The position numbers were made by a program, and so were the translations under genes. From an uncultured Spirochaetales bacterium (lineage in GTDB: Bacteria > Spirochaetota > Spirochaetia > Sphaerochaetales > Sphaerochaetaceae): DNA of 40,088 bases. The stretch is from contig CAMZFA010000001.1 of assembly GCA_947305945.1 (NCBI GenBank), positions 1 to 40,088 on the forward strand, given 5' to 3'. The notes beneath the pieces are model-generated. The model made no database searches. It was not told the origin of the DNA and saw nothing but the letters and a program-made list of their open reading frames with translations. The first letter of the stretch is position 1. Each line of letters starts with the position of its first letter. Shown in pieces: positions 9,828 through 32,420 of the stretch.

Positions 9828-9853
9828 AACGTTCTCCTGTGTATTGTTCGATG

Positions 9854-11032: not shown

Positions 11033-11044
11033 GCGTGCCTCACA

Positions 11045-11785: not shown

Positions 11786-12957
11786 ATCATATCCTTCCTG
11801 TAGACATAGGTTCCGGCTTTGAGGTTGACTGCACAGACGTCTGCGGCAAGGCCGGCGGACAATGTGTTCACAAGGGCTGCTATTCCTGCGCAGAGGGGCA
11901 GGGCTGCAAGTGCCGGTGAAACTGCTGCAGCGCCGCTTCCCATGTAGTTGAGGGCGTAGACGCTTATGAACAGAATCTCAGAGCCCGGTGCCATGCAGCA
12001 GATGATGCTGAACAGCGAGCAGCTCAGTACAACGGGAAGAAGCCTTCCCAAACCGATCTGGAGAGAAGACGAGCCGAAGAGCACAAAGCAGGAGAAGAGT
12101 GTTGCGCAGGCTGCGCTTCCTCCCTTTGCAAAGAACATTGACTGTACTGCGGTAAGGGATACTACTCTCTTCTGGACGCCCAGGTTGTTTCTGACCGAGG
12201 TGTAGAAGGGAACCGCAGCCACGGCGGAATTTCCGGACAGGAAGGCCGGAAGAACCGCAGGCAGAAGGCGGAACATCCTGCTGTACGGGTTGTGTTTGAG
12301 CCCGGTTGCAACAAAGTATGACAACGGCAGAAGCCCGAATACCGCCAGAAGTGCAAAGATTACAAAAGTGGCGACCCAGGAACTTGTAAGGTCCGTTGCA
12401 AGTGTGACATCTGTCCATCTGGCGCTTATGAAGAAAAGCGGAATCCACCAGAATCTGGACAGATCCAGACAGAGGCGGTAGGAAACCTCGGACAGCGAGT
12501 TTGCTATGTTGTATATGGGCGTGAAGACGGAACTTGTGGGCCTGACGGCAAAACCGGTGACAAATGAAGCGGCAATCACGGCCGCCATGATGTTGCGGTA
12601 ATTGAGAACGTTCAGGGCAAGCGCGGCGGAGTCTTCCGAAGCAAATGATGCCGGAATTCCCGCCGGCATGGTTTTGAATGCCAGCGCCGCGCATAGGGAG
12701 AGAAGCAGTGTTGTGCACACTCCCCAGAGAAGGCTGAGCAGGAAGGTCTTGAGCCCTATGTCATGCCTTCCTGCAAAGGATGCAACGCTTGCCGCAAAAG
12801 TGGTGAAAACAACGACCAGAAGCAACACGGAAGAAACTGACAGCACAACCTGTGAGGCTGTGACTGTCAGCATTTCAAACCAGGCGTAGTCGCCGAACAG
12901 AAAGTAAAATGCCGATCCCAATGCGCAGGCAATGGAATACGTTAGCCAGTTTCTCAT
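11782..12957 (-). CDS. Polytopic membrane protein, at most weakly DAACS/sodium:dicarboxylate-symporter-like
   Basis: 391 aa with about 10 hydrophobic segments. GNSAVAAVPF vaguely recalls the SSxATLP motif of DAACS transporters. The family call is low confidence. ATGA overlap with the GH13 gene stop. Confidence 0.6.
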   Translation of the reverse strand: MRNWLTYSIACALGSAFYFLFGDYAWFEMLTVTASQVVLSVSSVLLLVVVFTTFAASVASFAGRHDIGLKTFLLSLLWGVCTTLLLSLCAALAFKTMPAGIPASFASEDSAALALNVLNYRNIMAAVIAASFVTGFAVRPTSSVFTPIYNIANSLSEVSYRLCLDLSRFWWIPLFFISARWTDVTLATDLTSSWVATFVIFALLAVFGLLPLSYFVATGLKHNPYSRMFRLLPAVLPAFLSGNSAVAAVPFYTSVRNNLGVQKRVVSLTAVQSMFFAKGGSAACATLFSCFVLFGSSSLQIGLGRLLPVVLSCSLFSIICCMAPGSEILFISVYALNYMGSGAAAVSPALAALPLCAGIAALVNTLSAGLAADVCAVNLKAGTYVYRKDMI

Positions 12958-15900
12958 TTAAGTCCTACCAACTTGAAGCCTGCAGCAGCGTTCTTTCTGA
13001 GCCAGGTCTTCACGGCTTCCTTGCTTTCCTCCTCGGTTGCACCGTTGAGAAGAGCGTCTGCAAGGCAGGCAATGAACATGCACTCCTGGAAGGCCTCTCC
13101 GTTGTACCAGCAGATTCCCTGGTACTCGTTTCTTCCCATGAGGTCGAGGAAGCTGTGGTTGTCCAGCAGATCTCTGATCTTCTTGGAATCGGATGAGACG
13201 AGCAGTGCGCTCCTGCTTATGTTGGACAGACTTGTCTCAAACAGACGGTCGAACATGAGAGTGCGGGCAATATTCATGATGTCCTGCAGGGAGTCCCCGG
13301 GTTTTGCAAACGGCAGCAGGAGGAAGGCACCCTCAAGCGTGGTTGCCAGCTGGTCGCCCAGGATGATTCCGCCGTCGGAGAACACCTCCCACTTGCACAC
13401 CTGCTCAAGGCGGGAGACAAGGCTGACAATCTTTGCCGGTTTGAGTTCTCTTGTCTGAAGGCCTATCTTTGCAAACACGTCCTTCAGCTCGTCCATGTAG
13501 GTGTAGCAGTTTGCAAGGTTCTGCAGGATTTCCCTTCTGGCTGCCGCCGATGTCCTTCCGGACAGCAGGCTCTTGAGGGCCTTTTTCAGGGCCGGGTTCT
13601 TTATGTTCTGTGCAACGTCGAAGAAGGGCTGGAGGTACATGAGCCTGATTTCAAGGTCAATGTCCGCAATTCCCCTGTCTCCTATGCGGTTGTACAGGCT
13701 CTCGTAAATGCCGTCCACATCCTCAATTTCCCTTATGTCCATCAGAATCTTTGTCTGATAGCCGTCAAGTGAGACCCAGAGGCCTTCCTCGAACAGGCGC
13801 ATTGACGGGCAGATGTGCCACAGGTTCTCGTTGAAATCCCTGTAGATGACAAATCTTCTGCCGCCCATTGTGAGTCTGAGGGCGTGGGCAATGGATGTTG
13901 TCTCAAGGGCATGTGTTTCCTTGTTGAGCTTGGGAGCGGACTCGTAGATTCTTCCCTGTGCATGCTCGAACCTGTTGTTGAACAGGACAAGGGTCATCTG
14001 TCTGTCGTCTCCGTTTGCAAATGCATATACGGACTCTTCAACGCTGTCTCCGTTTCTGACATCGAAAATCTGGAAATAGCGGCATTCGGAGAAGAGGTGA
14101 CGCATCTTGAGGAGCGGGAATATCTTTGCCCTGTGCCTGTCAATCAGGCCCTGGTCGGGCTTCTCATCCCAGTATGCTCTCTGGTATTCCATTCCGTACT
14201 TCTCATGGAAGCCTTCAATCTGGCCGTGACCGAACAGGGGCAGACCGGGCATTGTTGAGAGCATGGTACAGATTCCGAAGTACTTGTCTCCGTTTCCGAA
14301 CTGTGCAATTGCGGTGTCTTCATCCGGGTTGTTCATGAAGTTGACATAGCGCTTGAGGATCTCCGGATCAAAGGCGATTGTGGCCTTGATTGAATCCCTG
14401 TACTTGCGGTTGTCCTCGTTCTTCATCATGTGCATGAAGGCGCTGTTGTAAACCCTGTGCATTCCCAGTGTGCGGACAAAGTAGCTTTCCATCATCCAGA
14501 ATGCCTCTGCAAGAAGCAGGGTGTCCGGAAGCTCTTCCTGGATTCTGTCCACAACCTCACGCCAGAATTCAACGGGAATCCTGCGGTTGAACTCTTCATC
14601 CGACATGCTGTAGGCGGACCTGCCTGCAACATCGCCGCCGGTGCCCGGTTTGGGGTACCAGAGGCGCTGGATGTGTCTCTTGGCAAGGGTCATGGCCGCG
14701 TCGAAGCGGATGATGGGGAAGTTTCTTGCAACTTCAAGGATCTGCTGGATTACCGCTTCCCTTGTGACGGGGTTCAGGTAGTCAAGCTGGGCGGTGTCAT
14801 TCCAGGGCATTGTGGTGCCGTCGTTTCCGTGGAAGATGTAGCTTGTCTTTCCGGTTCTGTGGTCTCTGAACTGGAAGGTTACGGCTGCGTCCGTGCGGTT
14901 GAAATAGTGGTCTTCAATTCTTATCTCAACGGCGGGGTTCTCCGAGAGGTTCTCTCCTGTGTATGTGTAGGAGGGGAACGGGGGATAGTCCTGGCTGATG
15001 AAGTATTCGGGGTGGTTGAACATCCATTCGCTGTCAAGGCCTGTGTGGTTGGGAACCATGTCGCTGGCCAGTCTGATTCCGCGCATGCGGCAGCGTTCAC
15101 GAAGGTTGTTCAGGGCGTTCCAGCCGCCCATTCTGTTGGATATGAAGTAACCCTTGAGCGAATAGGCCGAGGACTCGGCGTCCGGGTTTCCGCAGAGGGT
15201 TTTGATTTTCTTTGATGCGGGGCTTCTTTCCCAGAGTCCGATGAGCCAGAGGGCTGTGAAACCGCAATCGCGCAGGAAGTCAAGTTCCTCATCGGGAATG
15301 GCGTCCAGAGTGTGGATGTCCCTGCCGTACTTCTTGCTCAGCTGGTCAAGCCAGACAAGGGTGCTCTTGGCCATCATGACAACGTTGGGCATCCAATGCT
15401 TGTCTGCGGTGAATGACTCGTAGTCGGGCTCTCCAGAGAAGTCCGGAAGCTGGATTTCTCCCGGGCCGCCGAAGCCGTGGTTGCGCTCTTCCTCGGCAAT
15501 GAAATCCAGTGCGTTGAGCAGGAGGATTTTCAGGAAATCCGGGAGGTAGACTCCCCAGTGTTCAATTATGTATGCAATCTGCTTTTTCAGGTCATCCGGG
15601 AAAAGCCTTGCGGGCATGGTGAGGAATGTGAACAGGTCATCCTCTCCGGAGTCTGCAATTGATGTGCCCTTGAGGTAGCTTCCCAGCAGTGCGTTCAGGG
15701 CTTTTGCGCCTTCCGGGAAGTTCATTCCCTTCTGGCTGAGCATCTGAGCTGTTGCCTTGAGGATGGCGGGGTTTGCCTGAAGAACCTGATGGATGAAGAA
15801 AGCTCTTGCCGTTTCCTCCGGGTCGGTTTCCTCAAGTTCCGAGGGGAACATCTGGCCGTAATAGGCAAGTACGGCGGCACAGTCCGTGTTCTTCTCTGCA

Positions 15901-19827: not shown

Positions 19828-19911
19828 TCGGGGCAGTACTGCGGGGTGCCGGGTTGAACGCCGAAAAAAAATAAAACAACACCGTGACGGAAAAGCGTGT
19901 ATCATAGAGGC

Positions 19912-20610
19912 ATGAAACTTCTCGAGAAAATAGCATCACTTGTTCCTGAAAAGGAAAATGTTTTCATCTCCATAACGGGCGGCGGCGGAAAGTCTTCCCT
20001 CATGAAGGATCTTGCCGCATTCTACAAGGCACAGGGCAAGAAGGTCCTCATTACAACAAGCACCCACATTCAGAGCTATCTGTTCTACGACTGGGGGACG
20101 GACCGCAACTTCACCATGTTCGAGGAGGCATGCGCCTTCAATCCCGATGGTCCGTGCTGCATTCTCTATGCCAGCAACATGCAGGATGACGTTCAGAGAC
20201 TGAAAGCACCCTTTGAGGAAAGAGTTCATCAGTTGTCCCGCAGATATGATGTTACAATCTGCGAGGCGGACGGCAGCAGGCATCTTCCGCTGAAGTTCCA
20301 CACCTCCAGAGACCCGGTGATCTACCCGTTCTCGGATATCACAATTGCAGTGATGGGCGCCTGGGCATACGGAAAGGAGGCCTGGGAGGTGACCTTCGGT
20401 TATGACGGAGACAACCTTGTGGACCAGACCTTCCTCAACCATTACATTTCATCTCCGGACGGACTTCTCAAGGGCAGACCGGACTATGTTCTGGTCAACG
20501 GACTGGACGGAGACGTCAAGGCAGAGCCGTTCATGTTCCTCTCATGGCCCAGGGGGACAAGGGTACTGGGCGGAAGCCTTATGAACAACACTTTGGAGTT
20601 TGAGATATGA
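19912..20610 (+). CDS. yqeC: Selenium-dependent hydroxylase accessory protein YqeC
   Basis: Starts MKLLEK... with the P-loop-like [13 protein letters not shown] typical of the YqeC family. ATGA overlap with yqeB. Confidence 0.75.
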
Positions 20611-21404
20611 TAGACCGCCTGATGATTATCAGGGGTGCGGGAGATCTTGCAACGGGAACAGCCCTCAGGCTTCACAACTGCGGTTTTCCCGTAATCATGC
20701 TTGATATTGAAAAGCCCACAGTAATAAGAAGAACAGTCTCCTTTGCACAGGCCCTGTTCTCCGGAGAAACGGAGATTGAGGGAGTGAAAGCCCTGCGCTG
20801 CACATTGGAAAACGCTGAAACAACTGCGCGCAGCGGCATTATTGCCGTTGTGGCTGACCCCGGAGCAAAAATTCTGGACACCGTGAAACCGGCAGTTCTG
20901 ATAGATGCAATCATAGCCAAGAAGAACCTTGGCACATACAGGAACATGGCTCCTTTCACCGTGGCTCTGGGACCGGGATTTGAAGCCGGAAAGGACGTGG
21001 ATGCGGTAATAGAGACAAAGCGCGGCCATACTCTGGGTTCTGTGATCCGTGAAGGCTCTGCTGTTCCCAATACCGGAATCCCGGGTGTGATAGGAGGCTA
21101 CGGAAAGGAAAGGGTCATGCATTCCCCGTGCAGCGGAGTCTTTCACTCGGACCTTGAAATAGGGGCTCTTGTTGAAGCGGGTCAGACAATAGGAACGGTT
21201 GACGGGGTGCCCGTCATAACAGAGATTGCCGGAAAACTGAGGGGGCTTCTGTCCAGCGGTCTTCATGTTCCGGAGCACTTCAAACTTGCAGACGTGGACC
21301 CGCGCGGGGCTTCCGTTGACCATACAACTGTTTCAGACAAGGCCCGTGCCATAGCCGGCGGGGTGCTTGAGGCAGTCATGGGCTTTTTGTACGGAGGTTT
21401 CTGA
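20607..21404 (+). CDS. yqeB: Selenium-dependent molybdenum hydroxylase system protein, YqeB/EF2563 family (short ~265-aa form)
   Basis: 265 aa. N-terminus is MIIRGAGDLATGTALRLHNCGFPVIMLDIEKPTVIRRTVSFAQA. Positioned between yqeC and the desulfurase, as in the known clusters I recall. Confidence 0.75.
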   Translation: MIDRLMIIRGAGDLATGTALRLHNCGFPVIMLDIEKPTVIRRTVSFAQALFSGETEIEGVKALRCTLENAETTARSGIIAVVADPGAKILDTVKPAVLIDAIIAKKNLGTYRNMAPFTVALGPGFEAGKDVDAVIETKRGHTLGSVIREGSAVPNTGIPGVIGGYGKERVMHSPCSGVFHSDLEIGALVEAGQTIGTVDGVPVITEIAGKLRGLLSSGLHVPEHFKLADVDPRGASVDHTTVSDKARAIAGGVLEAVMGFLYGGF

Positions 21405-21406
21405 AA

Positions 21407-22543
21407 ATGCCCGCAAGAGTATATCTGGACAACGCGGCAACCTCCTTTCCCAAGGCTCCGGGTCTGGGACAGGTAATATCAACCTACATAGAGGAAGACT
21501 GCGTGAACATAAACAGGACGGACAGCCCTCTTGCAATGAAGAGCTTTGACTTTCTCATGGATTTGAGGGAGAACCTGTGCAGTCTTTTCAACTATCCCCA
21601 CCCGGAGTGCGTGATCTTCAGATCCGGTCTTACGGAGTCCATGAACTGGATAATCAAGGGGCTTCTGGAACAGGGCGACCATGTTGTTGTTACATCCCTT
21701 GAACACAACGCGGTAATGAGGCCTCTGGTACAACAGAAAATTTCATTTTCACGCATTCCCTGCAATGTTTACGGTTATTGCAGCGCAGAAGAGGCAGAGA
21801 AGCTGATAAGGCCGGAGACCCGTGCCATGATAATAAATGCGGCTTCAAATGTCTTCGGAACAGTTCAGGACCTGAAGGCTCTTTCACAGGTTGCTAAAAG
21901 ACACAATCTTCTGTTCATTGTCGATACCGCACAGTCCTGTCCCCATGTGAAGACGGACATGATGGATCTGGGGGCCGCAGCAGTATGTTTTGCCGGCCAC
22001 AAAGGTCTTCTTGGCCCACAGGGAACGGGAGGCTTCATAATCCGCAAAGACCTGGCCTCTCGGCTTGTCCCCCTGATTGCAGGAGGCACCGGAAGCAGGA
22101 GTGACAGCGAGGAAATACCGGACATGCTTCCGGACCGCTTTTCCCCGGGAACAGAGAATCTTCCGGGGCTGAGAGGTCTTGCCCACAGCGTTGAATATGT
22201 TCTGAACAACCTTGAAAATCTTGAAGAGACCACAAGGGAAAACACAAGGTACCTCTATGAGAAGCTTTCACAGATTGAGGGAATAAGGATTGTGGGACCC
22301 GGCCCGGACATGAGCAGAACACCCGCAATCTCAATAGTCTCCGACAGGGCGGACATTGCCGCTCTTTCTGCCGTTCTTGCGGAAAACGGAGTTGAGACAA
22401 GGGTTGGAATGCACTGTGCCCCTGCTGCCCATAAGGCCATGGGAACCTTCCCCGGGGGAACTCTGCGCCTCAGTGCCGGACCTTTTACCTCAAAAGATGA
22501 AATTGATTTTGCCGTAAAGATTCTGGCAGAGAACCCTGCCTGA
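21407..22543 (+). CDS. Class V aminotransferase-fold cysteine desulfurase / selenocysteine lyase (short-N-terminus EF2568-like type)
   Basis: 378 aa. Motifs YLDNAATSFPK, PLP-lysine context FAGHKGLLGPQGTGG and catalytic Cys context RVGMHCAPAAH are present. Confidence 0.85.
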   Translation: MPARVYLDNAATSFPKAPGLGQVISTYIEEDCVNINRTDSPLAMKSFDFLMDLRENLCSLFNYPHPECVIFRSGLTESMNWIIKGLLEQGDHVVVTSLEHNAVMRPLVQQKISFSRIPCNVYGYCSAEEAEKLIRPETRAMIINAASNVFGTVQDLKALSQVAKRHNLLFIVDTAQSCPHVKTDMMDLGAAAVCFAGHKGLLGPQGTGGFIIRKDLASRLVPLIAGGTGSRSDSEEIPDMLPDRFSPGTENLPGLRGLAHSVEYVLNNLENLEETTRENTRYLYEKLSQIEGIRIVGPGPDMSRTPAISIVSDRADIAALSAVLAENGVETRVGMHCAPAAHKAMGTFPGGTLRLSAGPFTSKDEIDFAVKILAENPA

Positions 22544-22670
22544 AGAAACTGAATAGAATACCGTCAAAAAAACTTCTCGGAAATCATCTTGAAAATCAGA
22601 TGTAAAATCTTGTCTCAAAACAGATAACTTTCATACCGGTTTTTACATGGAAAAAAGACGCAAAAAACCG

Positions 22671-22699
22671 TTGTATTCTGAAAAAAACAATGGTAGTAT
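22671..22699 (+). promoter_or_regulatory. Possible promoter of the yedE-selD operon: TTGTAT-17-TAGTAT
   Basis: TTGTAT (22671-22676), a 17-nt spacer, TAGTAT (22694-22699). About 38 nt of A-rich leader follows, with AGAGAGG before the ATG at 22738. Confidence 0.35.
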
Positions 22700-22737
22700 T
22701 CTTCCTTGGAAAAACAAAAAAGAGAGGTTAATTCCAA

Positions 22738-23802
22738 ATGAAAGAAAAACGCAATCTACTTATTGCAGGCCTGGTTATCGGTGTTATTTCGGTATTTCTG
22801 GTTCTGCAGGGAAACCCCAAGAACATGGGTTTCTGTATAGCCTGTTTTATTCGCGATATTGCAGGAGCAACAAAGCTCCACACAGCAGCAGTTGTCCAGT
22901 ATGTAAGACCTGAAATTCTGGGTCTTGTAATTGGATCATTCCTTATTTCTCTGTGCTTCGGAGAGTTCAAACCCCGCGGAGGCTCGGCACCCGTAACAAG
23001 GTTTGTCATTTCCTTTATAGTAATGATCGGCGCCCTTACATTCCTTGGCTGCCCGTTCAGAATGATTCTCAGACTCTCCGGCGGAGACCTCAATGCCCTT
23101 GTCGGTCTGTTCGGTTTTGCCTGCGGAATAGGATGCGGAGCATTTTTCCTTTCCAAGGGTTTCAATCTGGGTCGTACAAGTGAACAGAGAACCCTTGAAG
23201 GTGCAGCTCTTCCTGCAGTCAATGTTCTTCTTCTGATTCTTGTTCTTGCAGTTCCCGCACTGTTCGCCTTCTCGGAGAAGGGCCCGGGTTCAATGCACGC
23301 TCCCGTCATCCTTTCACTTGCTGCAGGTCTTGCAGTAGGTATTCTTGCCCAGAAGACAAGGCTCTGCATGGTAGGCGGAATCAGAGACACCATCCTGCTC
23401 AAGGACACAACACTGCTTGTCGGTTTCATTGCAATCTTTGCAGCAGCCCTTGTCATGAACCTTGTTACAGGCAACTTCAACCTCGGTTTTGCAGGTCAGC
23501 CCGTTTCACAGCCCAACCAGGTATTCAACTTCCTGGGCATGTTCACAGTAGGTCTCGGCGGAGCACTGCTCGGCGGATGCCCCCTCAGACAGCTCATTCT
23601 TGCAGGTGAGGGAAATTCAGACAGCGCAGTAAGCGTACTCGGAATGTTTGTCGGAGCAGCTTTTGCACACAACTTCAAGCTTGTCGGAAACGCAACGGAA
23701 GCAGGTCCCAACACCTACGGAAAGGCCGCTGTAATTCTCGGTATTGCTGTTCTGCTGGTAATAGGCTGGTACTACACATTCAAAAAGAAGGTGGCAAAAT
23801 GA
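22738..23802 (+). CDS. yedE: YedE-family putative selenium transporter
   Basis: 354 aa and polytopic. N-terminal motif NPKNMGFCIACFIRDIAGA and second-half GGCPLRQLILAGEG are present, the paired Cys-containing half-repeats of YedE/YeeE. Confidence 0.8.
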   Translation: MKEKRNLLIAGLVIGVISVFLVLQGNPKNMGFCIACFIRDIAGATKLHTAAVVQYVRPEILGLVIGSFLISLCFGEFKPRGGSAPVTRFVISFIVMIGALTFLGCPFRMILRLSGGDLNALVGLFGFACGIGCGAFFLSKGFNLGRTSEQRTLEGAALPAVNVLLLILVLAVPALFAFSEKGPGSMHAPVILSLAAGLAVGILAQKTRLCMVGGIRDTILLKDTTLLVGFIAIFAAALVMNLVTGNFNLGFAGQPVSQPNQVFNFLGMFTVGLGGALLGGCPLRQLILAGEGNSDSAVSVLGMFVGAAFAHNFKLVGNATEAGPNTYGKAAVILGIAVLLVIGWYYTFKKKVAK

Positions 23803-24005
23803 CGGAAGTTGATGCAAGAGGACTCAGCTGTCCCATTCCCGTAGTTGAAACCAAAAAGGCCCTCAAGGCCCACCCGGAAGGAGTGTGTGTGCTTGTGGAT
23901 GCCAAGGTTTGTGTTGAAAATGTTTCCCGTTTTGCCTCAGCAATGGGTTATAATGCCAAGGCAACAGAGGCAAACGGAGAATGGAAGATAGAAATAAGCA
24001 GATAA
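23799..24005 (+). CDS. yedF: TusA/SirA-fold sulfur/selenium carrier, YedF-like
   Basis: 68 aa with DARGLSCPIPVVETKKAL (the CPxP motif). ATGA overlap with yedE. Confidence 0.75.
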   Translation: MTEVDARGLSCPIPVVETKKALKAHPEGVCVLVDAKVCVENVSRFASAMGYNAKATEANGEWKIEISR

Positions 24006-24250
24006 TGACTGCAACATTCAGCAGTCACTACGGCGCAATGCTCACAAAGAAAAGACTGGGGGCAGGGTGTACCTTGAGGCCCATCCCCCGGTCTCTTTCT
24101 GCGTCCTGCGGCACCTGCGCCGTCATAGACGGCCATAGCCTTGAGGAGATAAAGGAAAGTTCAGGGGAATACCTTGAGGCCGTCTACATTGAAAATAAAG
24201 GAAGGTACGAGAAGATATATGAGTTCAATCCGTCTGACCAGTCTTGTTAA
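24005..24250 (+). CDS. DUF3343-like small Cys-containing protein, a putative Se/S carrier
   Basis: 81 aa from the ATG at 24005 (TAATG overlap with the yedF stop). Starts MTATFSSHYGAMLTKKRL with an ...SCGTCAV motif. The family call is from memory. Confidence 0.55.
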   Translation: MTATFSSHYGAMLTKKRLGAGCTLRPIPRSLSASCGTCAVIDGHSLEEIKESSGEYLEAVYIENKGRYEKIYEFNPSDQSC

Positions 24251-25247
24251 AACAAGCGGATGCGCCGCAAAACTGCCGCCTTCGGATCTGCACGCCGTAA
24301 TAGACAGCCTGCCGGTTCTTTCAAGCCCGGATCTCGTGGAGGGCTTTGAAACCGCGGATGACGCGCTTGTCTGGCGTGTGGGTGAAAACCGCGTCTGCGT
24401 ACAGACGGTGGATTTCTTCCCGCCTATGGTCGATGATCCGTATACCTTCGGCCAGATTGCCGCGGCCAACGCCCTCTCGGATGTCTACGCAATGGGCGGA
24501 GAGCCCTCGGTTTGCCTGAATCTCATGTGCTTCCCCGCCTGCCTCACGCTGGATGTCATGCGCAGAATCCTTCTGGGCGGCCTGGACAAGGCAAAGGAGG
24601 CCGGCGCGGTCATAGCCGGAGGCCACACCATTTCCGACCCCACGCCCAAGTACGGCCTTTGCGTCACTTCCTTCATGAATGAGGACGAGGTCTGGTCAAA
24701 CAGAACAGCCCTCCCGGGCGATGCCGTAGTGCTCACCAAGGCCCTGGGCGTAGGTATAGTCAACACCGCCGCCAAGGTGGACGAGGCTCCGGAGGAGAGT
24801 GTAAGACAGGCACAGGATTCAATGACCCGTCTTAACAGAAAAGCACGCGATATTGCACGTAAATACAGGATTCACGGTGCAACGGACGTAACCGGCTTCA
24901 GCCTTTCCGGCCACGGAAGCGAGGTTGCCGCAGCCTCCGGTCTTACATTGAAAATCAACACCGCAGACCTTCCTGTTATTGACGGAGCCCTTGAGCTTGC
25001 CCGTTTCGGCTTCCTGCCGGAGGGTCGTTATGCCAATGAGGAGTTCCTCAGGGACAAGGTCAGTTTTGCAGAGAATATCAAACTTGAAATGAGAGACCTG
25101 TGCTTTGATCCGCAGACAAGCGGCGGACTTCTTCTCTTCATGAGCCCCGGGGATGCCCGCTCTTATGTAAAAGAGATGGATATGGACTGCTGCAGGATAA
25201 TAGGGACAACTTACAAACAGGGAAAATACCTCATGGAGTACGTTTGA
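24219..25247 (+). CDS. selD: Selenide, water dikinase (selenophosphate synthetase), Cys-type
   Basis: Starts MSSIRLTSLVKTSGCAAKL. The catalytic Cys is TGC at 24261-24263, three residues before the Lys as in E. coli C17/K20. DFFPPMVDDPYTFGQIAAANALSDVYAMGG is present. Confidence 0.9.
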   Translation: MSSIRLTSLVKTSGCAAKLPPSDLHAVIDSLPVLSSPDLVEGFETADDALVWRVGENRVCVQTVDFFPPMVDDPYTFGQIAAANALSDVYAMGGEPSVCLNLMCFPACLTLDVMRRILLGGLDKAKEAGAVIAGGHTISDPTPKYGLCVTSFMNEDEVWSNRTALPGDAVVLTKALGVGIVNTAAKVDEAPEESVRQAQDSMTRLNRKARDIARKYRIHGATDVTGFSLSGHGSEVAAASGLTLKINTADLPVIDGALELARFGFLPEGRYANEEFLRDKVSFAENIKLEMRDLCFDPQTSGGLLLFMSPGDARSYVKEMDMDCCRIIGTTYKQGKYLMEYV

Positions 25248-25774
25248 TGCACATTTTCATTACAGGTGAAAAGCACGTTGGCAAAAGTACTGTGATAAGA
25301 AAAGTGCTTGAAGAGACCTCTCTCAAATACGGAGGTCTTTTTTCCGTCTCCGAATTTCAGGGCCCGGACAGGCTTGTCTATCTGACGGATGAAAGCGGGT
25401 CTGAAAGGAAACTCTGCGGAATATGTTCAAGTCAGCATGTGACGGAAAGGAGGCCGGAGGTCTTTGATACCGAAGGCGTGCGCCTTCTTGAAAAAGCCGC
25501 CCGGAGAAACAGCCTGATAGTCATTGACGAGATAGGAAACATGGAAAGCACGGCTGCCGTTTACAGCCGCACGGTGGAGAACCTTCTTGAGGACGCCGGA
25601 AAAACGGTACTGGGAGTAATCCAGAAAAGAGCATCATCGGAACTTGCCGCAAAAATAAGGGGAAATGCCGGTATCCTGATGTATACTGTTACTGAGGACA
25701 ACAGAAACGCCCTTGTCAATGAAATATCCGAGAGGCTGATCCGTGAACTGTGCTGTAAAACTGATTATAGGTGA
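25247..25774 (+). CDS. THEP1-like P-loop nucleoside triphosphatase (NTPase_1-like)
   Basis: Walker A is ITGEKHVGKST and Walker B is LIVIDEIGNME. It aligns along its length with Aquifex THEP1 as I remember it. TGATG overlap with the selD stop. Confidence 0.7.
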   Translation: MHIFITGEKHVGKSTVIRKVLEETSLKYGGLFSVSEFQGPDRLVYLTDESGSERKLCGICSSQHVTERRPEVFDTEGVRLLEKAARRNSLIVIDEIGNMESTAAVYSRTVENLLEDAGKTVLGVIQKRASSELAAKIRGNAGILMYTVTEDNRNALVNEISERLIRELCCKTDYR

Positions 25775-26072
25775 AAACCAACCCTCCGTGGGTCCCGGCC
25801 TGATTTCCCTTCTTGAGCTGATAAGGGAAAGCTCCAGCGTTATGGAAGCCGCCGAAAAGATGGATGTCTCATATTCAAAGGCCTGGAAGATAATCAGACA
25901 GGCCGAGGAAAACCTGGGAAAGAAACTTGTTTTGCGCAAAAGCGGAGGAACGGGCGGCGGAAGTGCGCAGGTCACACCCGAGGGACTGGCATTGATAAAG
26001 GCGTTCCGGAAGACCGAAAAACAGGTTTCAGATTTTGCTCGCAAAAAGGTACTTCTGAATTTCCCGTCCTGA
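25743..26072 (+). CDS. ModE N-terminal-domain-like winged HTH protein with no Mop/TOBE domain
   Basis: 109 aa. ISLLELIRESSSVMEAAEKMDVSYSKAWKIIRQAEENLGKKLVLRKSGGTGGGSAQVTPEG parallels the ModE N-terminal domain. The GTG start is uncertain and gives a 32-nt overlap with the NTPase gene. Confidence 0.65.
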   Translation: MNCAVKLIIGENQPSVGPGLISLLELIRESSSVMEAAEKMDVSYSKAWKIIRQAEENLGKKLVLRKSGGTGGGSAQVTPEGLALIKAFRKTEKQVSDFARKKVLLNFPS

Positions 26073-26079
26073 GGAGCGC

Positions 26080-27897
26080 ATGAAAAAACTCATTTTAACC
26101 GTTCTGCTGCTGTCAATTCTTCTGTCTCCCGTCTTTGCCGAAGACAAGGAACTGGAACTGGCCACGGTTCCTGTAGTTTACGGGGAGGAAGATTTCATAG
26201 CCCGTATACAGCAGCGCTGTCAGGGGCGTGAGCCCGTGGGTCTTGTTCTGACCGGAGGCAGCGCAAGGGCTCTTGCCCACATAGGGGTCCTGCAATATCT
26301 GGAAGAGCATAACATAGTCCCGGATTTCATCATTGCAAACTCAATGGGCTGCATAATTGCCACCTCCTATGCTGCGGGAATGTCCCCGCAGCAGATTCTC
26401 AGAGTCTGTACTTCCGTTGATCTGGGTTCTCTTTTCGATCTTTCCCTTCCTTTCGGAAGAGGTCTTTTGACAACACATGGATTTGAGAGTCTCATGGCCT
26501 CTCTTCTGGGTGAAAATCTTCAACTGGAGGACCTTGAAATACCGGTTATGGTTGTTTCCGAGGACCTTCTGTCAAAGCGTCAGATCAGAATCTGCAGCGG
26601 TGATTTCTACACTGCTTTCACCGCCAGTTATGCCTTGCCTGTGTTCTTCTCACCGGTCAGATTTGACAAATACCTTCTGACGGACGGCGGAGTTGCAAAC
26701 ATTGCCCCGCTGAATGCAGCCTATGACTATACTGACAGCAACATTGTCTCAACCACCTTCTACAGCGGAGCGGATACCAATTTAAAAAACCCCATCACCG
26801 TGCTGAACGTTGCCATGGACATTGGCAAGAGACGTGAGGGAATGGAGAACATCCAGGCCCATCCTGATGCAATCTGGATCAGGTGTGATGTTGAGGATTT
26901 CAGTTTCATGGAGTTCTCCGCCGGAGCAAAGATGGCCGAGCACGGGTACAGGTCCGCCTCAGAACATGAGGAGCAGATAAATGCGCTTGCAAAGAAGGGG
27001 GCAGGAGTTTCTGCCTCATTGCTTGAAAAGCGCAGAATCATGGAAGAGAGAATAGATAGAACACTTGAGAACTACAGGGGACAGAAACACCTGACCCTGC
27101 ACAGGAGTGCTTCCTATCCTTCCCTTTGGTTCCTGTCCGATCCGTCAGGCTTTCTTGCCGGCTGGAAGTATGCGGTCAGGTATATTGCTCTTTCCGCCGG
27201 AGCCGGCTTCTCTTACAGCCTCAATTCAAGAAATTCATATATAAAAGCACGCGCAGAGGCTGTGTTTGATTTTTATCCCTTTCCCAAGGCAAAGTTTGAG
27301 GCAAAACTTGCCTATCTGCCATGGAAGGAGTTTGAAGTTTCCGAGCTGTTTGAATATGCCTTCATCACAAGACCCGGGATGAGAGTCAGTGCCGGAGAGC
27401 TTGTTTCATGGAACAATGTTACGGGAAAAGCAGGCGGCCGCATCTATGCGGAGGGAGACTTCTCATTTGCACAGACGGGAGAACTTGAACCTTACGCCGC
27501 CTTTGTATTCAAGGGTGAAGATACCGGTTTTGCGGCTTCTGCCTCATACAGCATGAACTTCCCGGGAACGGTCTTCGGTTTCTCCGTCAGCGGCGGGACG
27601 GAAAAGAACTTTGACTCGGGAAACTATACTCTGAATGCCGGAGGAATGCTCTTTTGGCGTGATCCGGAATTTGAAACATCCTTTGCGGAAACCCTCCTGA
27701 TGACAGACGTGCGCTGCGGAGTTTTTGCCGACTACACATATGAGAAAGACACAAGCGGTACGGATCTGATCCTGGGCATCTTTGCAACTGCGGACACAGA
27801 CCTGCTGGGCCTTGTAAGTCTGCCTTCCGAAATCAAACTCGGCTGGGATTTTCTGTATGAAAAGTTCTATTTCTCCTTCTCCCTGAACAGAAGGTGA
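26080..27897 (+). CDS. Secreted patatin-like phospholipase with a ~270-aa aromatic/beta-rich C-terminal domain
   Basis: Signal peptide MKKLILTVLLLSILLSPVFA. Oxyanion motif is LTGGSARALAHIG. Nucleophile elbow is ANSMG (A replaces the first G of GxSxG). The Asp dyad motif is TDGGVANI. The GAGGAG ribosome-binding site overlaps the upstream stop codon. Confidence 0.8.
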   Translation: MKKLILTVLLLSILLSPVFAEDKELELATVPVVYGEEDFIARIQQRCQGREPVGLVLTGGSARALAHIGVLQYLEEHNIVPDFIIANSMGCIIATSYAAGMSPQQILRVCTSVDLGSLFDLSLPFGRGLLTTHGFESLMASLLGENLQLEDLEIPVMVVSEDLLSKRQIRICSGDFYTAFTASYALPVFFSPVRFDKYLLTDGGVANIAPLNAAYDYTDSNIVSTTFYSGADTNLKNPITVLNVAMDIGKRREGMENIQAHPDAIWIRCDVEDFSFMEFSAGAKMAEHGYRSASEHEEQINALAKKGAGVSASLLEKRRIMEERIDRTLENYRGQKHLTLHRSASYPSLWFLSDPSGFLAGWKYAVRYIALSAGAGFSYSLNSRNSYIKARAEAVFDFYPFPKAKFEAKLAYLPWKEFEVSELFEYAFITRPGMRVSAGELVSWNNVTGKAGGRIYAEGDFSFAQTGELEPYAAFVFKGEDTGFAASASYSMNFPGTVFGFSVSGGTEKNFDSGNYTLNAGGMLFWRDPEFETSFAETLLMTDVRCGVFADYTYEKDTSGTDLILGIFATADTDLLGLVSLPSEIKLGWDFLYEKFYFSFSLNRR

Positions 27898-27906
27898 GTT
27901 TTTCTG

Positions 27907-27935
27907 TTGACCCATAATCCTTAATGAAATACAAT
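27907..27935 (+). promoter_or_regulatory. Strong sigma70-type promoter: TTGACC-17-TACAAT
   Basis: TTGACC (27907-27912), a 17-nt spacer, TACAAT (27930-27935). About 45 nt of leader follows, with GGGAGGG before the ATG at 27981. Confidence 0.55.
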
Positions 27936-27980
27936 GGCCCTTGGTTGTGTTTTCAAAAACAAGACCAGGGAGGGTTCTCC

Positions 27981-29051
27981 ATGAAGAAGATATCGGCAAT
28001 TGTTGCCGTGTTTATGCTTTGTTGCAGTGTTTTGGTTGCACAGGGTGCCGTTGAACGTGAGGCACAGCTGAATAAAACCGTGCAGTTCACGGATTCCTGC
28101 GGAAGGACCGTTGAGCTTCCGGCAAAGATTACAAAGGTTGCTCCCTCCGGCATTGTTTCCTCCATGATGTTCTCATGCATTGCGCCGGAGTATATGTGCA
28201 ACATGAATTCAAAACTTTCTGATGCGCAGGCCGAATATCTTCCCCAAATCCTTAAGGATCTTCCCGCAACAGGCCAGCTTTACGGAAGCAAGGCCATAAT
28301 AAACTACGAGGAGCTGATTGCTACCGGAGCACAGGTTCTGGTGGACCTGGGAGATTACAAAAAGGGAATAGCGGAGGACCTTGATGCACTCCAGGCTCAG
28401 ATTGGAATTCCCTGTATCTTCATTGAGGCAGATCTTTCACATATGGCCGCTGCGTTCAGAACCCTGGGTTCGATTCTTGACGGAAAGCAGGCAAGGGGCG
28501 ATGAACTTGCCGCTCTGATTGAAGAAGCAATGAAGACCGCTGCGGAGGGCAGTGCGAAAATAAAGGAAGATGAAAGAGTGTCCGTCATGTTCTCCTCTCT
28601 GTCAAAAGGTCTGGGAACAAACGCCAAAGGCTCAAGCCAGGCACAGGTCCTTGAACTTGTGGGCGCCGAAAACGCAATTGTGGTTGAAAAGGTAACTTCA
28701 AAGGGCGGCGGAAACCTTGTGAGCATTGAACAGGTCTATGCCGCAGATCCGGATGTGATCATCTTCTCGGAGAAGGAAGTCTATGAAAGCGCTACCGCCG
28801 ATCCTGCGTGGAGGGAACTCAGGGCAATCAGAGAGGGCAGATATTACCTTGTCCCCACGGACCCTTACAACTGGCTTTCAAACCCGCCTTCACTGAACAT
28901 GGTCCTGGGTATCTACTGGCTGGGAAATCTTCTCTATCCTCAGTATTATGATTATGACATTGCCTTGCAGGTGCAGAAAATCTACAAGGTCTTCTGGAAC
29001 TGTGACCTTTCCGCATCTCAGACAGAGGCATTACTCAAGGGAGCAAGATAA
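27981..29051 (+). CDS. ABC transporter substrate-binding lipoprotein, Peripla_BP_2 (FecB/BtuF/FhuD) class
   Basis: Signal/lipobox-like MKKISAIVAVFMLCCS. The overall pattern fits a class III substrate-binding protein (...KVAPSG..., ...ADPDVIIFSE...). It is followed by a FecCD permease. Confidence 0.8.
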   Translation: MKKISAIVAVFMLCCSVLVAQGAVEREAQLNKTVQFTDSCGRTVELPAKITKVAPSGIVSSMMFSCIAPEYMCNMNSKLSDAQAEYLPQILKDLPATGQLYGSKAIINYEELIATGAQVLVDLGDYKKGIAEDLDALQAQIGIPCIFIEADLSHMAAAFRTLGSILDGKQARGDELAALIEEAMKTAAEGSAKIKEDERVSVMFSSLSKGLGTNAKGSSQAQVLELVGAENAIVVEKVTSKGGGNLVSIEQVYAADPDVIIFSEKEVYESATADPAWRELRAIREGRYYLVPTDPYNWLSNPPSLNMVLGIYWLGNLLYPQYYDYDIALQVQKIYKVFWNCDLSASQTEALLKGAR

Positions 29052-29056
29052 GACTC

Positions 29057-30100
29057 ATGAAAGACAGGGCTGCATACGGCTTCAAAATGACAATACTCTC
29101 AGTATGTTTTCTTGCCGTGTTCTTTCTGTCTTTTTTCCTGGGAAGATATGATCTGGACTTTCCCGCCGTGGTCAGAATCCTTACGGACAGGCTCATAAGG
29201 TTCCTGAGTTTCGGAAAACTGGGCCTTGTCCCCAGCTGGACAGGCGCACAGCAGGCAATAGTAGTTAACATACGCCTTCCCAGAATACTGGCGGCCGTTC
29301 TCATAGGGGCGGCCCTCTCTGTGGCCGGAGCATCCTATCAGGGCATGTTCAGAAACCCCATGGTGAGCCCTGACCTTCTGGGCGCCTCAACCGGTGCCGG
29401 ATTCGGAGCAGCCCTTGCCATTCTTCTGGGTTTTTCCTACACGGGAATAACCCTTTCATCATTCATTTTCGGCCTTTCAGCCGTCCTGCTTGCATATATA
29501 GTCTCAAAAGCCAGCCGGATACAGACCACCCTTGCAATGGTCCTGGCCGGTGTGATGGTCAGCTCCCTGTTCTCCGCAGGCACAAGTTTTGTCAAACTTG
29601 TTGCCGATACGGACAGTCAGCTTCCCGCCATTACCTACTGGCTCATGGGCTCTTTATCCTCAATCAAGGCAAAGGATGTTGAATTTGCGGCAATTCCCGT
29701 GCTGCTGGGCCTTGTTCCCATAGTCCTGCTGCGCTGGAGAATAAACCTGCTCACTGTTTCCGAGGCAGAGGCAAAGAGCATGGGAATTGAGACCGGAAAA
29801 CTCAGACTTCTGGTCATAATCTGCGCAACACTCATGACAAGTGCCGCTATATCCGTAAGCGGAATGATAGGATGGGTGGGACTTGCCGTACCGCACTTCT
29901 GCCGTCTTATCTTCGGGCAGGATTACAGACGCCTCATTCCATCTTCCGCCCTCATGGGAGCGCTGTTTCTTCTGCTTACGGACAACATTGCCAGAACAGT
30001 TGCAACATCCGAGATCCCGCTGGGAATCCTCACAGCCTTCATAGGCGCACCGGTGTTCCTCTATCTCATAATCACGGGAGGCAGTGAGAAAAATGATTAA
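29057..30100 (+). CDS. ABC transporter permease, FecCD/BtuC family
   Basis: 347 aa. Motifs NIRLPRILAAVLIGAALSVAGASYQGMFRNPMVSPDLLG and IPLGILTAFIGAPVFLYLI are present. Confidence 0.9.
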   Translation: MKDRAAYGFKMTILSVCFLAVFFLSFFLGRYDLDFPAVVRILTDRLIRFLSFGKLGLVPSWTGAQQAIVVNIRLPRILAAVLIGAALSVAGASYQGMFRNPMVSPDLLGASTGAGFGAALAILLGFSYTGITLSSFIFGLSAVLLAYIVSKASRIQTTLAMVLAGVMVSSLFSAGTSFVKLVADTDSQLPAITYWLMGSLSSIKAKDVEFAAIPVLLGLVPIVLLRWRINLLTVSEAEAKSMGIETGKLRLLVIICATLMTSAAISVSGMIGWVGLAVPHFCRLIFGQDYRRLIPSSALMGALFLLLTDNIARTVATSEIPLGILTAFIGAPVFLYLIITGGSEKND

Positions 30101-30869
30101 AACAGACAAACTCTGTTTTTCCTACTCCTCCAATGCAGTTCTCAGGGATGTGGATTTTCAGGCTCCGGAAGGAGTACTTGTCTCCGTTCTGGGTCCCAAC
30201 GGTGTGGGAAAGACCACGTTCTTCCGTTGCCTCCTGGGTTTTCTCAGGCCTACATCGGGAAGTGTGGAAATAAACGGAAAAGACGTTTGTGCATACACCA
30301 AACGCCAATTATCAAAGCAGATTGCATACATTCCGCAGAGCTACAACCCTGTCTTCAACCACACGGTAATGGACAGCGTGCTCATGGGGCTTACATCTTC
30401 ACTGGGCTTGTTCGAGCAGCCGGGAAAGACGGAGGAGGAAAAAGCCCTGAAGGCACTGGAAGAACTGGGAATTGCAGAACTTGCCGGCAGGGGAAGCATG
30501 AAGATTTCCGGCGGAGAACGCCAGCTCATGCTCATAGCCCGTGCCCTGGTCCAGGATGCAAAAATCCTGATCATGGATGAGCCTACGGCCAATCTGGACT
30601 ACGGCAACAGCTACCGCGTCATGCAGAAAATATCATGCCTCCGTGAGGACGGATACACCGTAATCTTTTCAACTCATAATCCCGATCAGGCCCTGCGCTG
30701 GGCAGACAGGGTTTTTGCCCTCAGTGACGGACAGGTCCTTGCGGACGGGCCTGCGGACAGCGCAATAAATGAACAAGTGCTGAAAAAACTTTACAGCGTT
30801 GACGTTGCGGTAAATACTGTCAGAGCGGGTAATGACCAATACAGGGTCTGTACCCCGTTCGGAGAGTAA
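30093..30869 (+). CDS. ABC transporter ATP-binding protein, FecE/BtuD-like
   Basis: Walker A GPNGVGKTT, signature ISGGERQ, Walker B ILIMDEPTANLD. The ATG at 30093 overlaps the permease stop by 8 nt. Confidence 0.9.
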   Translation: MIKTDKLCFSYSSNAVLRDVDFQAPEGVLVSVLGPNGVGKTTFFRCLLGFLRPTSGSVEINGKDVCAYTKRQLSKQIAYIPQSYNPVFNHTVMDSVLMGLTSSLGLFEQPGKTEEEKALKALEELGIAELAGRGSMKISGGERQLMLIARALVQDAKILIMDEPTANLDYGNSYRVMQKISCLREDGYTVIFSTHNPDQALRWADRVFALSDGQVLADGPADSAINEQVLKKLYSVDVAVNTVRAGNDQYRVCTPFGE

Positions 30870-30870
30870 A

Positions 30871-31599
30871 ATGCACAGAATGTCGGAATGGAATGCCTCA
30901 ATGATTGCCTTCATGGACGATGCGTCCTCATACGGTGATTATTTTGCCGCCCTTTCCGCCGCCCTTTCCCCGTATATAGGCAAGGATATGGCAGTCTGCG
31001 ATGCAGGCTGCGGAATAGGACAGCTGAGTTTTGCCCTCTCTCCATATGCGCAAAGCGTAACGGGAATTGACAGGTCCGAGGACGCCGTAAGGTTCTGTGA
31101 AAAGAAAAAACGCATTTCATATGTCTCCAACGTAAGTTTTGAATGCAAAGACCTTCTCAACATGCCCCGGAAAACGCAATTTGACGTGATGGTCTTCAAC
31201 TACTTCGGCCGTATGGAGCAGATTGTGGAAATTGCCCGCAGACACTGCAGGAAAAGGGTGATAGTGATCAAGAAGAACTATACTCAACACAGGTTCTCCA
31301 TAGGGAAGAATCCCATTTCCGGGCAGGAACTGTACGGAGCGGATGAATGTCTGGAACGTGAAAAAATTGCACACACCGGGGATTTGTTTTCACATGAATT
31401 CGGCCAGCCTTTCAGAAGTCTTGAAGATGCGGTGAAGTTTTTCGGTATATACAGCAGGGATGAAGACAGAAGCATTATAAACACTGAAAATGTGCAATCC
31501 AGACTTGTAAAAACCAATAATCCGGTTTTCCCCTGGTATCTTCCCCATGTCCGGGAGAGCAGGATTTACATAATTGAAATGAAGGAGATTCTCAAATGA
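30871..31599 (+). CDS. Class I SAM-dependent methyltransferase, substrate unknown
   Basis: Motif I is VCDAGCGIGQLSFAL. The ATG at 30871 is 1 nt after the ATPase stop, with GGAGAG upstream. Confidence 0.7.
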   Translation: MHRMSEWNASMIAFMDDASSYGDYFAALSAALSPYIGKDMAVCDAGCGIGQLSFALSPYAQSVTGIDRSEDAVRFCEKKKRISYVSNVSFECKDLLNMPRKTQFDVMVFNYFGRMEQIVEIARRHCRKRVIVIKKNYTQHRFSIGKNPISGQELYGADECLEREKIAHTGDLFSHEFGQPFRSLEDAVKFFGIYSRDEDRSIINTENVQSRLVKTNNPVFPWYLPHVRESRIYIIEMKEILK

Positions 31600-32420
31600 C
31601 GGAAGTACATTCCCAGACACTTAAGACCCTCATGCACGGCAGTGCCGCCGTTATCTGTGAAATAGTGGAAGCAAAGGGCTCTTCCCCGCGTAAAACCGGA
31701 GCACAGATGCTTGTGGACAACAGCGGCAGAACATGGGGCTCGGTAGGCGGCGGGGCCCTTGAGAACCTCTGTATAAAGAAAGCTCTGGAGCTGCATAAAA
31801 CAAAACAGGGCTATGTTCAGGAATTTGATCTTGCATCCGCCCTTGAGGACGGCTCGTCCATGATCTGCGGAGGGGATGTGACAATAGAATTCACATATCT
31901 GGATACTCAGGATGCCGTTTCCGCATATTTCGGAGAGGAGGAAAAGCCCATAAAGGTATACCTCTTTGGAGGCGGCCATGTAGGCACCGAGCTTGTTCCG
32001 GTTCTTGAGCACCTGCGCTTTGATGTCATTGTCCTTGACGACAGGCCGGAATTCGCTTCTGCAGATAGGCATCCGAAGGCAGGGCAGTGCATTCTCTGTG
32101 ACTATGAAAACATTGAAAAATACGTTTCCATACAGCCTGAGGACTATGTTGCGGTAATGACCCACGGTCACAAGAATGACAGGAATGTGCTTTTACAGTG
32201 CATGAGAAAGCACCCTTCTTACATAGGCTGCATTGGAAGCAGGAATAAGGTTGCCGCCACCCATCAGTTCCTCAGGGAAAACGGAATTACGCAGGAAGAT
32301 ATAGACAGGCTGCATTCACCCATAGGCATAGACCTTCTGGGTGACACTCCCGAGGAGATTGCAATAAGCATTGCGGCTCAGCTGATAAGGCATCGCGCAG
32401 AAAATGCGCGGAAAGCCTGA
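31596..32420 (+). CDS. XdhC/CoxI-family molybdenum cofactor insertion chaperone
   Basis: 274 aa. The N-terminal XdhC_CoxI region is AAVICEIVEAKGSSPRKTGAQMLV...GSVGGGALE. The Rossmann-like C-terminal region is VYLFGGGHVG. ATGA overlap with the methyltransferase gene. Confidence 0.8.
   Translation: MTEVHSQTLKTLMHGSAAVICEIVEAKGSSPRKTGAQMLVDNSGRTWGSVGGGALENLCIKKALELHKTKQGYVQEFDLASALEDGSSMICGGDVTIEFTYLDTQDAVSAYFGEEEKPIKVYLFGGGHVGTELVPVLEHLRFDVIVLDDRPEFASADRHPKAGQCILCDYENIEKYVSIQPEDYVAVMTHGHKNDRNVLLQCMRKHPSYIGCIGSRNKVAATHQFLRENGITQEDIDRLHSPIGIDLLGDTPEEIAISIAAQLIRHRAENARKA

Follow-up and report, generated by a model that had tools for sequence, protein, structure and literature searches.

An operon coupling a MolBC-like importer to a methyltransferase and XdhC: a candidate molybdenum-cofactor supply module in an uncultured spirochaete

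Within a 40,088-nucleotide (nt) stretch of DNA (hereafter, the window) from an uncultured bacterium of the Sphaerochaetaceae (Spirochaetales; GCA_947305945.1, contig CAMZFA010000001.1), a five-gene operon at positions 27907–32420 joins a type II ATP-binding cassette (ABC) importer to a class I S-adenosylmethionine (SAM) methyltransferase (MT) and a chaperone of the XdhC family. On the basis of homology and gene content, we judge the chances to be about even that this operon is a molybdenum-cofactor supply module whose cargo is most likely preformed molybdopterin cofactor (that is, molybdenum cofactor (Moco) or molybdopterin (MPT)). Slightly below even, in our view, stands the fuller proposal of a first bacterial uptake system for preformed Moco, in which a MolBC-like importer would hand Moco or MPT to XdhC, with the MT and a THEP1-like nucleoside triphosphatase (NTPase) as new cofactor-handling factors. 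A bacterial Moco transporter, an XdhC–methyltransferase link and an XdhC–MT–ABC module were each sought in the literature, and nothing relevant came up. Loci are denoted below by L-numbers and genomes by G-numbers, G000 being the genome of the window itself.

The importer is encoded on the forward strand by a Peripla_BP_2 binding-protein gene (27981–29051; Pfam, 49 bits), a FecCD (type II) permease gene that follows after a 5-nt gap (29057–30100; Pfam FecCD, 290 bits) and an ABC ATPase gene (30093–30869; ABC_tran, 112 bits), whose ATG at 30093 gives an 8-nt overlap with the permease gene (a GTG at 30084 being the other possible start). Among solved structures, the permease matched MolB (HI1471; 2nq2) best, with 236 bits and an E-value of 8e-69, followed by FhuB (172 bits), HmuU (164) and BtuC (141). 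Searched by sequence against the PDB, the binding protein found 4pag and 4ovk first and then MolA (HI1472), in front of the binders of siderophores, haem and B12, and MolA (1e-11 by sequence and 3e-20 by profile) is thus its nearest relative of known ligand. The predicted model of the binding protein (mean predicted local distance difference test (pLDDT) 87) gave a similar order, with structural Z-scores of 35 for 4pag, 29 for 4hn9, 28 for 4ovk, 26.9 for MolA (root-mean-square deviation 3.0 over 296 residues, 23% identity) and 26 for 2etv; lower matches were YiuA (24), haem binders (about 20) and BtuF (19), siderophore and haem matches together spanning Z 18–24. The closest solved proteins, 4pag, 4ovk, 4hn9 and 2etv, are structural-genomics entries without an assigned ligand, from Sulfurospirillum, Veillonella, Eubacterium eligens and Thermotoga.

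The same make-up, a MolB-like FecCD permease with an ABC ATPase and a MolA-type binding protein of class III, is found in MolBC-A (HI1470–72), the type II system of the FecCD class through which Haemophilus takes up molybdate and tungstate at low affinity (PMC4031551, PMC4245157). Since MolB is the nearest relative of the permease, and MolA falls into one group with the binding protein, we class the module as molybdenum-related with certainty, and not as a siderophore, haem or B12 system. The initial annotation, which held that molybdate and tungstate use ModABC, TupABC or WtpABC instead, overlooked MolBC-A, the type II importer of these metals that is the closest characterised relative of both proteins. 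The binding proteins linked to the module form a subfamily with a mean column identity of 58% in the alignment and the invariant motifs FTDSxGR, GQLYGGKG, DxGExK, SKGTGNE and GPYNWxxxPPS, of which GQLYGGKG, SKGTGNE and GPYNW..PPS are missing even from 4pag; with invariant motifs of its own, the subfamily need not share the ligand of MolA. In this spirochaete the binding protein is no more than a putative lipoprotein, given that the signal peptide is present and a canonical lipobox is not (Cys14/Cys15 stand in a different context, and the relative at L012 has no Cys), whereas Clostridial homologues carry classical L-A-A-C lipoboxes.

That the operon encodes an ordinary importer of Fe-siderophores, haem or corrinoids, standing next to XdhC by chance, is in our view very improbable, the least probable of the explanations considered here. 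Its Pfam families are those of chelate importers, the NCBIfam models nearest to the ATPase are those of corrinoid, haem, F420-0 and FecE ATPases (all below cut-off), and the binding protein matches FhuD-type and BtuF models, yet these matches reach 24–25 bits where the cut-offs are 234–374. For BtuFCD in particular, the BtuF model scored 24 bits against a cut-off of 234, BtuF lay at Z 19, and no Rfam family, and hence no cobalamin riboswitch, matched at threshold in the whole window; for the iron-siderophore and haem importers (FhuBCD, FecBCDE, HmuTUV), NCBIfam scores were likewise far under the cut-offs (no search for a Fur box was made). In structural comparison, BtuF and the binders of haem and siderophores also lie further off (Z 18–20 against 27–35), no second Peripla_BP_2 protein was found in the assembly, and the linkage described next outlasts the shuffling of gene order across three phyla.

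The remaining two genes follow without a break: the MT gene (30871–31599, forward strand) begins with an ATG 1 nt after the ATPase stop, a start that agrees with homologue lengths of 237–242 residues, and the XdhC gene (31596–32420, forward strand) overlaps it by ATGA. Searching a one-genome-per-species collection with the MT revealed relatives at 365 places, of which 80 were fetched with 10-kb flanks; these lie in Spirochaetales/Sphaerochaetaceae, in many Oscillospiraceae and other Clostridia, and in Anaerolineae including the isolate Flexilinea flocculi TC1. Of the 76 loci with sufficient sequence, 54 have the ATPase gene directly upstream of the MT gene; XdhC is no more than 3 kb from the MT gene in 50 of 62; 63 of 80 contain a FecCD or binding-protein gene and 13 of 80 YqeC; and independent Pfam annotation gives the same importer–MT–XdhC pattern. 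Gene order differs between groups: in spirochaetes it is binding protein–FecCD–ATPase–MT–(FlK)–XdhC, in Clostridia FecCD–ATPase–MT–(binding protein)–XdhC–NTPase, and in Flexilinea MT–XdhC–NTPase–FecCD–ATPase–binding protein, and in many Clostridia the MT gene sits inside the transporter operon, with the ATPase on one side and the binding protein on the other. A linkage that survives such shuffling in three phyla argues for a functional unit. The view that importer and XdhC functions ordinarily occur apart is therefore wrong, and the conservation check that the initial annotation had proposed shows the ATPase–MT–XdhC linkage to be widespread rather than unique to this genome; its suggestion that transporter, MT and XdhC work together as a unit bound up with the selenium (Se)/Mo-hydroxylase maturation island agrees with this widely kept junction and with the frequency of YqeB among carriers given below.

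Most carriers of the module appear unable to make the cofactor that their enzymes would need. We scored gene families in 50 module-bearing genomes, mostly metagenome-assembled genomes (MAGs) of unknown completeness: xanthine dehydrogenase (XDH)-family enzymes were found in 47 and YqeB in 43, with MoaC in 14, MoaA in 13, and MoeA_N and MoaE in 6 each. MoaA, MoaC, MoaE and MoeA were thus not found in about 70–88% of these genomes, which keep 1–6 XDH-family genes together with XdhC and YqeB. The genome sets that have MoaA and MoaC coincide, which argues against random assembly gaps, and control genomes all gave the expected results. The three phyla agree in this: searches for MoaC came up empty in all 5 spirochaetes, 4 of 5 Chloroflexi and 27 of 40 others, and the isolate F. 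flocculi TC1 has five XDH-family genes and neither MoaA nor MoaC. In the genome of the window (78% complete), its congeners G001 (95%) and G002 and the confamilial G017 (94%), searches for MoaC, the MoaA C-domain and MoeA_N gave no match, and each of the four has 3–5 MoCoBD_1 (that is, XDH-family) genes. The molybdate-binding protein ModA, scored by TIGR01256 given that PF13531 (SBP_bac_11) is too promiscuous, had no match at cut-off in G000, G001, G017, the Chloroflexi MAG G055 or F. flocculi (G080), TupA and WtpA not having been searched for specifically. One ModA candidate, 6 kb from an XDH gene on contig C14 with prfA and prmC in between, proved to be an SBP_bac_6/SBP_bac_1 protein and was rejected. 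The sole MoCF_biosynth match in the genomes tested lies inside an open reading frame (ORF) of 408–514 residues and is not MogA-like, and each of the five has a MocA/MobA-like gene.

As a comparison, we drew 201 genomes evenly at random from the order of one Clostridial carrier, of which 26 have XDH-family genes, 20 MoaC and 3 the MT. Given that three MT positives are too few for a contingency test, XdhC neighbourhoods were compared instead. Where XdhC is present and MoaC absent (four genomes, all also without MoaA and ModA), a FecCD–ATPase–binding-protein set with 40–54% identity to the window proteins lies directly beside XdhC in three, with no MT there; among genomes that have MoaC, the importer is beside XdhC in 0 of 14, and XdhC there accompanies moaA, moaC, mogA, modABC, yqeB and selD (Fisher's exact test for adjacency against MoaC absence, p = 0.005, uncorrected for kinship). 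Beside XdhC, the type II importer thus occupies the place that modABC and the moa genes hold in prototrophs. In seven of the 26 XDH-bearing genomes (G126, G145, G170, G179, G214, G260 and G264), a single XDH-like ORF of about 760–830 residues occurs with neither MoaC nor XdhC; these are a second kind of 'orphan' molybdoprotein that the module leaves unexplained.

Cells without MPT synthesis and Mo insertase cannot use molybdate alone, yet the carriers keep XDH-family enzymes, XdhC, YqeB, YqeC and SelD, which makes import of Moco or MPT the most economical reading; with MoaA, MoaC, MoaE, MoeA and ModA undetected in the genome of the window and in most carriers, we regard preformed cofactor as the likeliest cargo. 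By comparison with characterised systems, we envisage that the MolBC-A-like binding protein, permease and ATPase would carry a molybdenum species into the cytoplasm, where the co-translated XdhC chaperone would receive it and, with the neighbouring YqeB, YqeC, SelD and SclA, mature the cofactor and insert it into the three or four XDH-family enzymes encoded elsewhere. The cargo would be preformed Moco or MPT that the cell salvages from its gut community, on the analogy of BtuCD-F for B12, and the MocA-like enzyme could convert the imported cofactor to its cytosine dinucleotide form, while the MT and the THEP1-like NTPase may act on the cargo or its hand-over. XdhC-family proteins bind Moco, promote its sulfuration and insert it into XDH-family enzymes. 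The protein encoded here, a short 274-residue form with both XdhC_CoxI (62.8 bits) and XdhC_C (140.8 bits) domains, belongs to this family (TIGR02964, 165.5 bits against a cut-off of 161.6), and is likely to be the recipient of the imported species.

A possible but less probable explanation is an orthodox MolBC-A-type importer of molybdate or tungstate, or perhaps of thiomolybdate in the sulfidic gut or rumen, which would be the sole Mo uptake route and would feed XdhC-dependent maturation; the MT could then dispose of sulfide or thiol ligands, and the pterin would have a source that has so far gone unrecognised. MolB leads the solved permeases by a wide margin, MolA is the nearest binding protein of known ligand, and ModA was not found in nine carrier or carrier-like genomes, which would then need another Mo importer. 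In prototrophs the module adjoins modABC, TOBE and moa genes (L007, L013 and L040), and a related MT–FmdE–ABC–NTPase module occurs in the Moco prototroph G211. Against an inorganic cargo, molybdate would be useless to the majority of module genomes, in which neither the Moa proteins nor MoeA were found; two molybdate importers side by side at L007, L013 and L040 would be redundant; and the invariant motifs of the binding-protein subfamily are missing from its nearest solved relative, 4pag.

Import of preformed cofactor, which we favour, has to be weighed against several observations. The sole characterised relatives, MolA and MolBC, handle oxyanions and not a pterin, and the binding protein is just about 23% identical to MolA. 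Fourteen of the 50 module genomes do make Moco, the modABC and moa genes stand directly beside the module at the three loci just named, and the related module of G211 lacks XdhC, so that the importer is not restricted to auxotrophs. Conversely, MoaC is missing from 11 of the 26 Clostridial sample genomes with XDH-family genes, and the MT from all 11, so that auxotrophy also occurs where there is no MT module; 7 of the 11 also lack XdhC. Most of the module genomes counted are MAGs of unknown completeness, the MT fits no known Moco chemistry, and free Moco is labile, its availability in gut contents being uncertain.

The MT is one of a compact family, as yet without a name, whose members are about 238 residues long and share invariant CDAGCGxG, HRF, GQP and FPYY motifs. 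It matches Methyltransf_31 and Methyltransf_25, with the invariant DAGCGxG and a conserved D/E after strand 2, and its predicted model (pLDDT 93.6) aligns at Z 16–17 with many class I MTs, which places it in the class I SAM fold. Beyond this, none of the named MT subfamilies searched (UbiG, ChlM, TehB, BioC, CpaM and others) matched at its curated cut-off (the best, UbiG, scored 39 bits against 103), the fold search gave a flat list with no specific structural neighbour, a profile search for distant relatives listed the core family alone, and a predicted complex of XdhC with the MT gained no support. A dithiolene S-methylase assignment was considered from the top Foldseek TM-scores (TmtA and GtmA, 0.67–0.69) and dropped as evidence, given the flat Z of 16–17 in VIA-align, where TmtA fell outside the top 50. 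The MT is dispensable for the ABC–XdhC core (MT-less modules occur at L090, L092 and L094), and we infer by analogy that it may modify or police the cargo. Human TPMT methylates the dithiolene in Moco catabolism, which prompted the speculation that the MT could S-methylate unmetallated or mis-metallated dithiolene. The THEP1-like NTPase_1 family, for which we know of no cellular role, is encoded in 40 of the 80 MT loci (range L014–L089), mostly directly after XdhC (for example, L022:12974 and L073:11862). Together, the two proteins would be conserved accessory factors acting on the cargo or its hand-over.

In the window, the operon lies downstream of a forward-strand cluster of Se-dependent Moco maturation genes (19897–25247) comprising yqeC, yqeB (346 bits), a sclA-like gene, yedE, tusA/DUF3343 and selD. 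XdhC had been described as the one obvious Moco-handling protein of this island, which does not hold given that YqeB and YqeC are there as well. The window itself encodes no Mo hydroxylase; the assembly (1.33 Mb) has three clear MoCoBD_1 genes and a divergent fourth, all on other contigs, and in combination with YqeB, YqeC and SelD these constitute the gene set for Se-dependent Mo hydroxylase maturation. An organic Se compound, or another small molecule for Se-dependent hydroxylases, is a conceivable cargo, with the MT modifying or detoxifying it (for example, by methylating selenide), and the adjoining Se island, YqeB in 43 of the 50 module genomes and a weak TehB-family match of the MT (E-value 4e-4) are in line with it. 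We nevertheless consider this improbable: YedE, TusA and SelD in the same cluster already provide Se uptake and activation, the ABC–XdhC adjacency tracks the absence of Moco synthesis and ModA and not of Se genes, and some ABC–XdhC modules do without the MT. Of the cargoes originally guessed at, a pterin-type compound is thus the one that the gene-content pattern favours, whereas organo-selenium gains nothing from it, YedE already being a candidate for a dedicated Se transporter.

Between this cluster and the operon, both on the forward strand and identified by Pfam, lie the THEP1-like NTPase_1 gene (25244–25774), here at the end of the selD operon, and a gene for a 109-residue HTH_1 protein that resembles the ModE N-domain (25743–26072) and is a candidate regulator of the module. 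Homologues of the HTH_1 protein adjoin the module at L006, L010–L012, L074 and L090, and a further copy is encoded on contig C27 of the same genome. What separates the HTH gene from the importer differs between genomes, with a secreted patatin-like lipase in the window (26080–27897) and a DAGK_cat lipid kinase in a 499-kb relative (L006:4161–5054), which suggests an insertion hot spot in an otherwise fixed cluster. On contig C27, a FlK-type hotdog thioesterase (L110:8616–9170) stands beside the HTH_1 copy and a three-subunit XDH-like enzyme with a divergent 666-residue large subunit, and in related spirochaetes a thioesterase of this type lies between the MT and XdhC genes (L006:8719–9123, L010:10718).

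The promoter, five co-directional genes and four junctions of the operon were all confirmed at the coordinates first assigned to them. The sigma-70-type promoter TTGACC-17-TACAAT (27907–27935, forward strand; 10 of 12 matches) is the best-scoring site within the sole intergenic gap of the operon region, and its −35 and −10 boxes are kept in five related spirochaete loci (L006, L010, L011, L012 and L055); promoter-like sites in the region are no more numerous than chance would give (4 found, 5.8 expected), so the case for this promoter rests on position and conservation. A leader of about 40–45 nt separates it from the binding-protein gene. At the start of the leader lies an imperfect palindrome, GTTGTGTTTTCAAAAACAAGAC (27944–27965), both arms of which are kept in the five related loci and which has its sole clear copy in the 1.33-Mb assembly here; it is perhaps an operator, a candidate target of the neighbouring ModE-N-like protein, or a leader hairpin. 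Downstream, the operon is bounded by a convergent sdaA and then by housekeeping genes.

Further arrangements were seen at individual loci. In an Oscillospiraceae genome, the importer is separated from the Crp–MT–XdhC genes by a cytidylate-kinase-like Cytidylate_kin2 gene (L007:6410–6988, L008:1498–2076) and a MatE exporter; a cytidine-nucleotide enzyme would fit the cytosine dinucleotide form of Moco. In the prototroph G211 (contig C10, locus L114, about 9693–14500), a distant MT (28% identity) is followed by FmdE, FecCD, ATPase, binding-protein and NTPase_1 genes, with no XdhC, and FmdE also stands beside the importer at L007 and L013, which points to a wider importer–MT–FmdE–NTPase theme. 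A confamilial spirochaete that has MoaA and MoaC contains an MT-like stretch (G006:C137:5373–6059; 27% identity) inside a 455-residue ORF, which may be a fused form.

To our knowledge, the Enterococcus faecalis EF2563–EF2572-type orphan-SelD set, which the genes directly upstream of the operon resemble in having YqeC, YqeB, an EF2568-like desulfurase/lyase and SelD, includes no chelate-type ABC importer, no such MT and no THEP1-like NTPase. The XdhC of the window shares both Pfam domains with Rhodobacter capsulatus XdhC and Escherichia coli PaoD and reaches the TIGR02964 cut-off, but, whereas known xdhC genes accompany the client enzyme or moa genes and their products receive cofactor of the cell's own making, the gene in the window is coupled in translation to those of an importer and an MT. 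With BtuCD-F the module shares the type II ABC architecture and, in our proposed functional analogy, the ability to let auxotrophs take up a complex preformed organometallic cofactor, as the B12 importer does; it differs in sequence and fold (BtuC, 141 bits; BtuF, Z 19), and has neither a cobalamin riboswitch nor a link to corrinoid genes. MolBC-A of Haemophilus influenzae (HI1470/HI1471/HI1472) has the same combination of class III binding protein, FecCD permease and ATPase, in a molybdenum-related context in both cases, but here the importer is in one operon with an MT and XdhC (and, elsewhere, the NTPase) and its binding-protein subfamily has invariant motifs of its own. The H. influenzae host, moreover, has Moco biosynthesis and ModABC (PMC4031551), both of which most module carriers lack. 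The module is thus a variation on the MolBC-A kind, and a new function is a strong and testable possibility for it.

Several hundred prokaryotes are on record as having molybdoenzymes but no Moco pathway or Mo transporter, without explanation (PMC6147048). One account (PMC9026282) holds that in most organisms Moco is not a nutrient that is taken up, and the only established case of living on preformed bacterial Moco is dietary uptake by Caenorhabditis elegans (PMC7849362, PMC9793310), which differs in being that of an animal whose transporter is not known, with no sequence relationship to the module. For this orphan-molybdoenzyme puzzle, the module offers a concrete and testable candidate, consisting of a transporter, a receiving chaperone and two accessory enzymes, that is present in the cultivable F. 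flocculi. If the cargo were an inorganic Mo species, the module would still be the main Mo acquisition route of the carrier lineages and would enlarge the MolBC-A class, which has been little studied, while giving two protein families their first functional context. If the cargo is Moco, the module would explain how XDH-type enzymes occur in hundreds of anaerobes (gut Oscillospiraceae, spirochaetes and Anaerolineae) without Moco synthesis or a molybdate transporter, would bear on purine and urate degradation in the gut by Se-dependent xanthine dehydrogenases, and would add Moco to B12, haem and quinones as a cross-fed public good of anaerobic communities.

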